Origin: Escherichia coli
Lineage (GTDB): Bacteria > Pseudomonadota > Gammaproteobacteria > Enterobacterales > Enterobacteriaceae
Length of the DNA stretch: 64,000 nucleotides
Direction: 5' to 3' (one strand)
Assembly: GCF_003334305.1 (NCBI RefSeq)
Contig: NZ_QOWS01000002.1
The notes under the pieces are model-generated. The model made no database searches and was not told the origin of the DNA. It worked only from the letters and a program-made list of their open reading frames with translations. The translations under genes were made by a program, and so were the position numbers. Shown here piece after piece: positions 15,716-18,925 of the stretch (within the stretch, counting starts at the first letter, position 1; each line of letters begins with the position of its first letter).

Positions 15716-15948
15716 TGAGATCCCATTATTTTTATCAATTTTTGTTGCTATCCGATCGCAAAAAAGCCACGTCATATGATCAGATAATTCTGATAATGAT
15801 AGACGCTATTTAACACTTCACACGGTTTGTATACGGAAAAGCATTTTGCTTTTTGTATTCAATTTAGACAGAATTTTATTAATCATTTCAGGGTAATGGG
15901 GTGATGAGATGTTGCGTAACAGGGCCAGAAGGCTAGACTACAAAATAA

Positions 15949-16953
<1,005 letters not shown>

Positions 16954-17142
16954 CAAAAGCAATTTTTCCGGCTGTCTGTATACAAAAACGCCGCAAAGTT
17001 TGAGCGAAGTCAATAAACTCTCTACCCATTCAGGGCAATATCTCCATTGCAGGTGAATGCAACGTCAAGCGATGGGCGTTGCGCTCCATATTGTCTTACT
17101 TCCTTTTTTGAATTACTGCATAGCATAATTGATTCGTACGAC

Positions 17143-17170
17143 GCCGACTTTGATGAGTCGGCTTTTTTTT
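17143..17170 (+). terminator. Rho-independent terminator-like hairpin plus T8 run downstream of zntB
   Basis: GCCGACT...AGTCGGC stem followed by TTTTTTTT. Confidence 0.6.
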
Positions 17171-17227
17171 GCCTGTTATTTATCAGCGTCTACCCTTTAA
17201 GAGTCCACCCAATGACCGGAGGGAAAT

Positions 17228-17401
17228 ATGACGACACTTATTTATTTGCAAATTCCTGTCCCTGAACCGATTCCTGGCGATCCTGTTCCAGTGCCCGATC
17301 CGATCCCTCGCCCGCAACCCATGCCTGACCCACCACCCGATGAAGAACCGATTAAATTGTCGCATCGTGAGCGTAGATCTGCGAGGATACGCGCCTGCTA
17401 A
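17228..17401 (+). CDS. hypothetical 57-aa proline-rich small protein (candidate upstream ORF of dbpA)
   Basis: ATG at 17228 preceded by GGAGG 7 nt upstream; codons read by hand to TAA at 17399-17401; below the size cut-off of the ORF track. Confidence 0.4.
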   Translation: MTTLIYLQIPVPEPIPGDPVPVPDPIPRPQPMPDPPPDEEPIKLSHRERRSARIRAC

Positions 17402-17430
17402 CTTTGCGTCGATGACCACGAGAATAGATT

Positions 17431-18804
17431 GTGACCGCTTTTTCTACCCTGAATGTTTTGCCTCCCGCCCAACTCACGAACCTTAATGAGTTGGGTTATT
17501 TAACCATGACGCCGGTGCAGGCCGCCGCGCTTCCGGCGATCCTTGCCGGAAAAGATGTTCGCGTGCAGGCGAAAACCGGCAGCGGCAAAACGGCGGCTTT
17601 TGGCCTCGGCTTGTTACAGCAAATTGATGCGTCGCTATTTCAAACCCAGGCTTTAGTGCTGTGTCCTACGCGTGAACTGGCGGATCAGGTGGCAGGTGAA
17701 TTGCGTCGGCTGGCGCGTTTTCTGCCAAATACCAAAATTTTGACGTTGTGCGGTGGTCAACCGTTCGGTATGCAGCGTGATTCGTTGCAACATGCGCCGC
17801 ATATTATCGTGGCAACGCCGGGTCGTTTGCTGGATCACTTGCAAAAAGGCACGGTATCACTGGATGCGCTGAATACTTTGGTGATGGATGAGGCCGACCG
17901 CATGCTGGATATGGGATTTAGCGATGCCATTGATGATGTCATCCGTTTTGCGCCTGCATCTCGACAGACGCTTCTGTTTTCGGCAACCTGGCCGGAAGCC
18001 ATCGCCGCAATCAGCGGACGAGTGCAACGCGATCCTTTGGCGATTGAAATTGACTCAACAGATGCTTTGCCACCCATTGAACAACAATTTTATGAGACAT
18101 CCAGCAAAGGCAAAATTCCTCTGTTGCAACGGTTATTAAGCTTGCATCAGCCATCCTCTTGCGTGGTGTTTTGCAATACCAAAAAAGATTGCCAGGCTGT
18201 CTGCGACGCGCTGAATGAAGTAGGGCAAAGTGCATTGTCGTTACACGGCGATCTGGAGCAACGCGATCGCGATCAGACTCTGGTACGTTTTGCTAACGGT
18301 AGCGCCCGTGTACTGGTTGCTACTGATGTTGCTGCGCGTGGTCTGGATATTAAATCGCTTGAGCTGGTGGTGAACTTTGAGCTGGCGTGGGACCCTGAAG
18401 TTCATGTACATCGCATCGGTCGTACAGCTCGTGCAGGAAATAGCGGTCTGGCGATCAGTTTCTGTGCTCCGGAAGAAGCACAGCGGGCCAATATCATTTC
18501 TGACATGTTGCAGATAAAACTTAACTGGCAAACGCCGCCAGCTAATAGTTCCATTTTGCCGCTGGAAGCAGAAATGGCAACGTTGTGTATCGATGGCGGG
18601 AAAAAAGCCAAAATGCGCCCGGGTGATGTATTAGGTGCGCTGACAGGAGACATCGGGCTTGATGGCGTAGATATTGGCAAAATCGCCGTGCATCCGGCGC
18701 ATGTCTATGTCGCGGTCCGTCAGGCTGTTGCTCATAAAGCATGGAAACAGTTACAGGGCGGGAAGATTAAAGGAAAAACGTGCCGGGTGCGGTTATTAAA
18801 ATAA
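17431..18804 (+). CDS. dbpA: ATP-dependent 23S rRNA-specific DEAD-box helicase DbpA
   Basis: 457-aa ORF, GTG start, DEAD motif (VMDEADRM) present. Confidence 0.95.
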   Translation: MTAFSTLNVLPPAQLTNLNELGYLTMTPVQAAALPAILAGKDVRVQAKTGSGKTAAFGLGLLQQIDASLFQTQALVLCPTRELADQVAGELRRLARFLPNTKILTLCGGQPFGMQRDSLQHAPHIIVATPGRLLDHLQKGTVSLDALNTLVMDEADRMLDMGFSDAIDDVIRFAPASRQTLLFSATWPEAIAAISGRVQRDPLAIEIDSTDALPPIEQQFYETSSKGKIPLLQRLLSLHQPSSCVVFCNTKKDCQAVCDALNEVGQSALSLHGDLEQRDRDQTLVRFANGSARVLVATDVAARGLDIKSLELVVNFELAWDPEVHVHRIGRTARAGNSGLAISFCAPEEAQRANIISDMLQIKLNWQTPPANSSILPLEAEMATLCIDGGKKAKMRPGDVLGALTGDIGLDGVDIGKIAVHPAHVYVAVRQAVAHKAWKQLQGGKIKGKTCRVRLLK

Positions 18805-18852
18805 TGAAATGTTGAATTGCCGGGTGCAAGAGTAAACATCTTATGCGGGATT

Positions 18853-18925
18853 GCCGGATGCGACGCTGGCCGCGTCTTATGCGGCCTCCATAAGAGTAGC
18901 CCGATACGCTTGCGCATCGGGCGCT
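18853..18925. repeat. REP-like (repetitive extragenic palindromic) elements between convergent dbpA and ttcA
   Basis: GCCGGATGCGACGCTGGCCGCGTCTTATGCGGCC matches the REP consensus as recalled; second GC-rich palindrome follows. Confidence 0.6.

Follow-up and report, generated by a model that had tools for sequence, protein, structure and literature searches.

Comparative evidence for a selected proline-rich core in the small protein YnaL of Escherichia coli and for a conserved nucleotide element at the ynaL-dbpA junction

MgtP, the leader open reading frame (ORF) of Salmonella mgtCBR, is sensitive to elongation factor P (EF-P). Acidic, proline-intermitted sequences rich in Asp, Glu and Pro (DE/P-rich), such as EPDP of MgtL and DPDPEPE of YagN, abort translation, and MgtL, the leader of mgtA, regulates in this way. 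Here we compare these systems, together with the arrest peptides TnaC and SpeFL, the SecM motif 'GIRAGP' and the proline-rich spacer of TonB, with ynaL, a small-protein gene that lies between the small RNA (sRNA) FnrS and the helicase gene dbpA in a stretch of 64,000 nucleotides (nt) of Escherichia coli DNA (contig NZ_QOWS01000002.1 of assembly GCF_003334305.1), hereafter called the window. The gene as such is not news, since VanOrsdel et al. detected it in 2018 and it has carried a name and an annotation from then on; the novelty of the present work is comparative, namely that its proline core is selected irrespective of dbpA and that its tail overlaps what the alignments present as a junction-specific, ultraconserved non-coding element.

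The closest described system is YnaL of K-12 itself (WP_001296046.1, the ynaL product of MG1655; Pfam PF23677), which has the same 57 amino acids and the same fnrS-dbpA position without any difference, the window gene being ynaL in a non-K-12 E. coli. Like MgtL, it is a short ORF with a proline-interrupted acidic stretch, then a basic tail, and a same-strand gene downstream. Unlike MgtL, which has 17 residues and its motif at residues 2-5, YnaL has 57 residues with the motif lying deeper, has orthologues without a downstream gene and shares no sequence homology with MgtL, and the defined alternative stem-loops and Rho terminator of the mgtA leader have no counterpart that we could find at ynaL. 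With MgtP it has in common consecutive proline codons within the ORF, but the PPP of YnaL is not kept across orthologues, and nothing resembling an attenuator structure is evident. The approximately 40 conserved residues, about one exit-tunnel length, and the basic end ...RIRAC-stop resemble TnaC, SpeFL and SecM 'GIRAGP'; unlike in arrest peptides such as TnaC and SpeFL, however, two lineages have lost the tail through a nonsense mutation, and it is the nucleotides, not the peptide, that account for its conservation. The alternation of X-Pro with acidic and basic residues also recalls the TonB spacer (PF16031, NF008084), to which there are weak, low-complexity hidden Markov model matches, but YnaL scores 20.8 against a cut-off of 315 bits and has neither a TonB domain nor a membrane anchor, and an NCBIfam search returned only low-complexity, TonB-like noise. 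The parts of the gene are as follows.

17218..17223, plus strand: Shine-Dalgarno sequence GGAGGG of ynaL, 4 nt before the ATG
17228..17401, plus strand: coding sequence of ynaL, 57 codons with an ATG start, encoding the proline-rich small protein YnaL
17228..17278, plus strand: variable N-terminal segment, codons 1-17, hypervariable between genera
17279..17347, plus strand: acidic X-Pro repeat core, codons 18-40, DPVPVPDPIPRPQPMPDPPPDEE, conserved, C-rich and G-poor, with PPP at 17330-17338
17348..17366, plus strand: frozen block 1, CCGATTAAATTGTCGCATC, codons 41-46, CCG ATT AAA TTG TCG CAT
17375..17395, plus strand: frozen block 2, AGATCTGCGAGGATACGCGCC, codons 50-56, with the rare codons AGA, AGG and ATA, a Shine-Dalgarno-like GAGG and a GATC

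A preliminary description of this locus had reported a 57-codon ORF at 17228 preceded by GGAGG, and the ORF listing returns exactly the peptide that it quoted, with the stop codon TAA at 17399-17401. The PPP run that it pointed out occupies residues (and codons) 35-37, inside the context DPPPD, and the peptide is indeed proline-rich, although its 16 prolines in 57 residues (28%) fall slightly below the one-third that had been estimated. GGAGG and ATG are kept in nearly all ynaL orthologues.

The proposal that the ORF encodes a genuine small protein was borne out by the RefSeq annotation of ynaL in K-12 and by published detection of the product. VanOrsdel et al. 2018 (PMC6001520) list an identical 57-residue YnaL under 'ynaL, fnrS / dbpA', detected it through a chromosomal sequential peptide affinity (SPA) tag and immunoblotting, and count ynaL among the unannotated positives of a tetracycline ribosome-profiling screen. 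The window locus is 99.2% identical to MG1655 over the 501 nt of a query around the ORF, and the same query matched 5393 of 5426 complete E. coli genomes, 5391 of them at 80% of the query length or more. Among the matches listed, every full-coverage row carries the annotation '(proline-rich small) protein YnaL' between zntB and dbpA, and ynaL is present and annotated in approximately 99% of complete E. coli genomes. Against Pfam PF23677 'YnaL' the peptide aligns over residues 1-57 of 57 (E 2.2e-40, 136.8 bits), all YnaL homologues carry this family, and the gene lies where the family pattern places it, 3' of FnrS and within the zntB-dbpA/ttcA interval. The ORF is an already known gene, real, translated and conserved, and its recognition here is a rediscovery beside a known sRNA.

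Selection on the peptide was assessed in a genome scan that yielded 33 ynaL loci (Escherichia, Salmonella, Citrobacter, Enterobacter, Klebsiella, Lelliottia, Pseudocitrobacter, Silvania and others). Of the 40 codons from 18 to 57, 30 vary at the third position and 13-14 at positions 1 and 2, and the median ratio of nonsynonymous to synonymous substitutions (dN/dS) against the window is 0.10 (31 comparisons with other species and genera), while shifted frames give values above 2. Codons 18-40 hold their residues while all 21 of their 21 degenerate codons vary synonymously. On this substitution pattern, the proline-rich core is under strong purifying selection at the amino-acid level. The first 15 or so residues are free to differ between genera, with a within-genus ratio of nonsynonymous to synonymous differences per site (pN/pS) of 0.15-0.44 in the N-terminal segment.

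Frame-disrupting indels in close relatives had been named beforehand as a finding that would speak against the ORF; what the E. coli entries contain is a handful of such alleles against thousands of intact copies, in addition to in-frame repeat indel alleles. In these rare alleles (P0106, P0110, P0007, P0002 and P0003) the stop codon is lost or the frame shifts in the CCACCACCC proline run, leading to products of 68-85 residues that enter the +1 frame; errors of sequencing or genuine slippage on the poly-C tract may account for them. Such alleles would speak for a chance ORF in a leader or intergenic region, without any coding function, but the low dN/dS, the conserved Shine-Dalgarno sequence and ATG, the near-universal presence in E. 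coli, the detected protein and the Pfam family leave this explanation with practically no probability, and we regard it as already refuted.

The core is also kept in Erwiniaceae and several Enterobacteriaceae, in which a terminator, and not dbpA, comes after ynaL. Phytobacter, Mixta, Scandinavium and Enterobacter sp. BIGb0383 have zntB, FnrS, ynaL, a hairpin and a convergent ttcA in this order; in Erwinia ynaL is followed by a terminator, ttcA and lastly dbpA, which has a promoter-like -10 to itself. The orthologues without an adjacent dbpA have neither block 1 nor block 2 and end differently, often in ...DPPPH(M/R)-stop, yet they retain the core DPVPxPDPIPxPQPxPDPP with a mean pN/pS of 0.20 at near-saturated synonymous divergence (pS). 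By this measure, the amino acids of the X-Pro core are selected with or without a downstream dbpA, and because the peptide is kept under selection where no dbpA follows, ynaL is more than a dbpA leader. We also observed that dbpA is absent from the zntB-ttcA interval in the Phytobacter, Mixta, BIGb0383 and Scandinavium loci (L036, L041, L045 and L046), in which FnrS and ynaL remain.

As to its structure, AlphaFold2 modelled YnaL as an extended chain without secondary structure (predicted template modelling score, pTM, 0.23), with a local confidence (pLDDT) of approximately 90 at residues 21-40. In this model YnaL looks like a polyproline-II-like rod with flexible ends and not like a folded domain.

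Beyond the core, constraint shifts from residues to nucleotides. Conservation at synonymous sites, which the preliminary description had put forward as a check, is strong in codons 41-46 and 50-57 and not in 18-40. In 32 sequences, synonymous change in block 1 is either nil or confined to a single sequence per codon, and codons 50-57 (AGA TCT GCG AGG ATA CGC GCC TGC) are essentially invariant. Only 5 of 17 codons vary in 41-57 against 21 of 21 in 18-40 (Fisher p = 2e-6), the baseline in the first 200 dbpA codons being 3.4% frozen codons, never two of them adjacent. Within genera, pS is 5-10 fold lower in the tail (0-0.08) than in the proline core (0.21-0.47). The frozen stretch contains AGA, AGG and AUA, the three rarest codons of E. 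coli. An exhaustive profile search of 1.84 billion proteins found only 32 representative YnaL clusters, including shorter or differently ending relatives.

Some of these relatives allow the nucleotides to be separated from the protein. Kosakonia and L040 (GCA_050507695.1) have an in-frame stop at ynaL codon 47, with the dbpA start 62 nt beyond, and they retain AGATCTGAGAGGATACGCGCCTGCTRA in what is now an untranslated spacer. In 142 usable loci, the ORF stops just past block 2 in 98 and runs on in 23 (Klebsiella types), whereas 20 have an in-frame stop before block 2, at two different codons and in two lineages, and in these two lineages the 21-nt block AGATCTGNGAGGATACGCGCC is unchanged although it lies beyond the stop and is no longer coding. 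Scanning metagenomes for AGATCTGNGAGGATACGCGCC gave at least 120 matches, and 119 of the 120 listed are the ynaL-dbpA junction, the remaining one being GC-rich, unrelated and due to chance. The N of GCGA/GAGA is the only base of block 2 that varies in the main alignment and among Kosakonia-type sequences, besides one G-to-C change in Klebsiella michiganensis and K. grimontii and changes in single sequences. Because it was kept after two independent in-frame truncations, block 2 shows itself, at the level of alignment, as a nucleotide element of the ynaL-dbpA junction that is conserved whether or not it is translated. The conservation of the E. coli '...RSARIRAC' tail is then probably a by-product of this element. 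A C-terminal motif conserved for its amino acids, as in arrest peptides, is not what the tail presents (20 of 142 loci are truncated, and synonymous sites are frozen), and the loss of the tail with retention of its nucleotides argues against a C-terminal arrest motif.

Two records deserve separate mention. L040 is labelled Salmonella enterica and carries at 2501-2650 a truncated ynaL of 49 residues with GAG at the A52E-equivalent position; as this ynaL is Kosakonia-type and not Salmonella-type, mislabelling of the record or transfer of the locus may be the reason. The loci of K. michiganensis and K. grimontii (L030 and L031, approximately 2594-2731) have lost the ynaL stop and carry AGG-to-ACG in block 2.

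Several candidate functions for the frozen blocks were tried and rejected. DbpA binds hairpin 92 of 23S rRNA, and mimicry of or complementarity to rRNA was therefore among them, but local alignments of blocks 1 and 2 to both strands of the whole 23S and 16S rRNAs and to the DbpA-activating 23S fragment 2454-2606 were no better than dinucleotide shuffles. An internal sigma-70 promoter was found neither by scan nor by eye. A second conserved ORF was dismissed since the +1 and antisense frames, while open, as is to be expected of a CCN-rich sequence, do not have conserved start codons, and the frame relation between ynaL and dbpA differs, with gaps of 27, 28 or 29 nt. As a motif of a wider regulon, block 2 fails because its listed metagenome matches, with the one exception given above, are this same junction. 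A 4-bp AUCU-GNRA-GGAU stem with a GNRA-type loop and a CsrA-site-like G-AGGAUA-C loop are possibilities without support.

The element leads into the junction with dbpA, which comprises the following features.

17402..17430, plus strand: ynaL-dbpA spacer of 29 nt, variable in sequence and conserved in length
17417..17433, plus strand: small hairpin CACGA/UUGUG, tentatively predicted, over the weak Shine-Dalgarno-like GAGA and the dbpA GUG
17431..18804, plus strand: dbpA, encoding a 23S rRNA-dependent DEAD-box helicase, a 457-codon ORF with a GTG start

In the genome scan, ynaL lies directly upstream of dbpA in 33 of 33 loci, with a gap of 27-29 nt in most genera. The window agrees with the close spacing that had been noted for it, the count being 29 nt and not 30. 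The dbpA start is GTG in all loci of the scan and TTG in Kosakonia, and its Shine-Dalgarno sequence is weak and GAGA-type. Most species are predicted to form the CACGA/UUGUG hairpin, in which 97% of cells are paired and all changes are one-sided. The ynaL stop has the context UGA-C in most genera, and a scan of the window called neither a promoter nor a terminator between the two same-strand ORFs. Taken together, a shared strand, a short gap and a weak distal start (GTG or TTG, GAGA-type Shine-Dalgarno sequence, start mostly paired) are the anatomy of a coupled pair, and hence the earlier suggestion of a link between the translation of ynaL and dbpA is a reasonable one; from the layout of the junction, it is plausible, though unproven, that dbpA is coupled to the translation of ynaL.

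Upstream of ynaL, the following features come into play.

17000..17013, plus strand: FNR box TTGAGCGAAGTCAA of the fnrS promoter, a sequence kept across genera
17049..17166, plus strand: FnrS sRNA including its intrinsic terminator, with the stem at 17143-17162 and a T-run to 17170
17169..17196, plus strand: putative sigma-70 promoter of ynaL(-dbpA), with -35 TTGCCT at 17169-17174, a 16-nt spacer and -10 TACCCT at 17191-17196

The candidate sRNA that the preliminary description mentioned between ydaN and dbpA is FnrS, as Rfam RF01796 matches 17049-17166 over the full model with 135.1 bits against a gathering score of 60. Likewise, the terminator hairpin that it placed at 17143-17170 was confirmed as the 3' end of FnrS, since 17143-17162 is the terminator helix of the FnrS covariance model and a terminator scan finds stem and T-run. 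FnrS is nearly invariant across 16 genera and species and lies directly upstream of ynaL in every lineage examined. The FNR box is identical to a chromatin immunoprecipitation target of FNR that had been filed under 'dbpA' (Grainger 2007). A lacZ fusion of the zntB-dbpA intergenic region had low activity and marginal FNR dependence.

The suggestion that the ORF starts a new transcript fits a conserved promoter-like motif past the FnrS terminator, the promoter itself being read from sequence. The pattern TTGCCN-16/17-TAnnnT at or after the FnrS terminator is kept in most lineages examined, from Escherichia to Erwinia, with the exception of Mixta, in which the spacing misfits, and Scandinavium, in which the motif has diverged. 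A promoter of this kind agrees with the low and at most marginally FNR-dependent activity of the cloned intergenic region. Because its -35 overlaps the T-run of the FnrS terminator, FnrS transcription could occlude or feed the ynaL promoter. Pairing of FnrS with the initiation regions of ynaL or dbpA was also considered and was no better than with shuffles.

Given these findings, we favour, with somewhat more than even confidence, the interpretation that ynaL, a small-protein gene, is transcribed independently and in Escherichia and its relatives doubles as the translated leader of dbpA. The gene would be driven by a weak sigma-70 promoter of its own, which overlaps the FnrS terminator and directly follows it, and its product would be an unstructured, acidic, extended X-Pro peptide whose sequence is the target of selection. 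In Escherichia, Salmonella, Citrobacter, Enterobacter and Klebsiella, where no terminator intervenes, ynaL would be the first cistron of a ynaL-dbpA transcript. Ribosomes ending ynaL would cross the conserved RNA or DNA element and terminate approximately 29 nt before a GUG with a poor Shine-Dalgarno sequence in a small hairpin, and dbpA output would probably be set in part by the frequency and smoothness of ynaL translation. It is from the identity of ynaL, the selection on it and the existence of the element that we infer everything else, including the promoter, co-transcription, coupling and any role of the peptide in trans. If the element and ynaL translation do control dbpA, this would be a rare case of a regulated bacterial ribosome-assembly helicase.

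Several observations weigh against this interpretation. The -10 TACCCT is weak, and the putative promoter did not reach the threshold applied in the consensus scan. In lineages with a truncated ORF, the 62 nt from the ynaL stop to dbpA are too far for simple termination-reinitiation, and yet the arrangement is maintained, while in K. michiganensis and K. grimontii the ynaL ORF overlaps dbpA by 50 nt in another frame. A conserved RNA secondary structure for blocks 1 and 2 was rejected, as RNAalifold found no covariation; a GNRA-capped hairpin is predicted in approximately 14 of 22 species, with z-scores between -2 and +2, and pair counts over the blocks are uninformative because the columns are invariant. 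Finally, a search of the accessible literature found no paper on YnaL function, and no partner or phenotype of YnaL is known.

A possible, though clearly less probable, alternative is that YnaL acts in trans and is unrelated to dbpA regulation, so that adjacency is mere synteny and blocks 1 and 2 form a leader element of dbpA which the tail of the ORF happens to overlap. Purifying selection on stand-alone, terminator-flanked orthologues, the accumulation of SPA-tagged YnaL and a tail that is dispensable as protein in two lineages while its nucleotides are kept are all in keeping with it. On the other hand, AlphaFold2 gives no fold, no domain or partner is known, and in most dbpA-adjacent lineages the ORF crosses the element and its stop codon keeps a constant spacing to the GUG, which would be unexpected if translation of the element were irrelevant.

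The view of ynaL as a regulatory upstream ORF of dbpA, raised in the preliminary description, is partly sustained, namely by the shared strand, the lack of a terminator, the 27-29 nt gap, the invariant non-ATG start with a weak Shine-Dalgarno sequence and the 3' nucleotide element, but the peptide is also selected where no dbpA follows. The stricter version, in which ynaL is essentially such an ORF and PPP/DPPPD ties dbpA expression to EF-P or elongation capacity in the way that mgtP acts on Salmonella mgtCBR, appears unlikely to us. D-P-P-P-D combines the strongest known EF-P-dependent contexts, which together with the operon-like junction and its weak GUG start speaks for this version, as does a proteomics paper in which DbpA, EF-P and ArgRS are more abundant in exponential phase, a correlation only. 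As in leaders of the mgtP type, there is a run of at least three Pro codons. This poly-Pro run, however, is not conserved: E. albertii, three Citrobacter, C. amalonaticus, Mixta, Phytobacter and Scandinavium have PSP, PPQ, PPF or PPL in place of PPP, and because the central PPP is lost in several lineages, a dedicated EF-P sensor, as had been suggested, is improbable. Moreover, a distance of 93 nt separates the PPP codons from the dbpA start downstream, with no alternative RNA structure to link them, and the same core is conserved where no gene follows. A search for alternative structures linking ribosome position to dbpA found no significant or covarying fold, only the 4-5 bp hairpin over the dbpA start, and nothing was found in the literature on regulation of dbpA by EF-P.

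A sensor of ribosome stability in the manner of MgtL, in which the acidic, proline-interrupted chain aborts translation by intrinsic ribosome destabilisation, more so at low Mg2+ or with defective 50S subunits, and thereby alters dbpA, possibly through Rho acting on the C-rich tract, seems very improbable. It draws on the MgtL precedent and on the composition of YnaL, which resembles the abortive sequences in having DE/P at 6 of 10 positions in residues 10-19 and at 9 of 9 in residues 33-41. The RNA from 17240 to 17360 is approximately 47% C and 19% G and thus resembles a Rho utilisation (rut) site, and the GC skew of the core falls to -0.43. Yet intrinsic ribosome destabilisation is strongest in the first 10 or so residues and is suppressed as soon as the tunnel holds 20-30 residues, whereas the densest DE/P cluster of YnaL lies at 33-41, where a filled tunnel would normally suppress the effect. 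The accessible part of the 3'-end mapping of Adams 2021 gives no Rho-dependent 3' end at the locus, and stand-alone orthologues have nothing downstream to regulate.

As an extension of the leader interpretation, we speculate that ynaL is a deliberately hard-to-translate ORF, by virtue of X-Pro, DPPPD, the acidic run, AGA/AGG/AUA and, in most genera, the weak UGA-C stop, whose ribosomes have to pass an ultraconserved RNA element of 21 nt shortly before the weak dbpA GUG, such that the yield of this 50S-assembly helicase reports on, and feeds back to, translation capacity, and that the element AGAUCU-GNRA-GGAUACGCGCC is a new, junction-specific cis-regulatory RNA motif; we give this idea a small chance of being right.

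Two further features flank the genes considered here. Between dbpA and the convergent ttcA, a GC-rich hairpin resembling repetitive extragenic palindromes lies at 18849-18885 (plus strand), with a weak naRNA4 match of 21.6 bits that is below the gathering score. Just upstream of zntB, a 15-codon ORF at 15909-15956 (plus strand) corresponds to 'protein YnaN' of the RefSeq K-12 annotation and is possibly a leader peptide of this zinc transporter gene.

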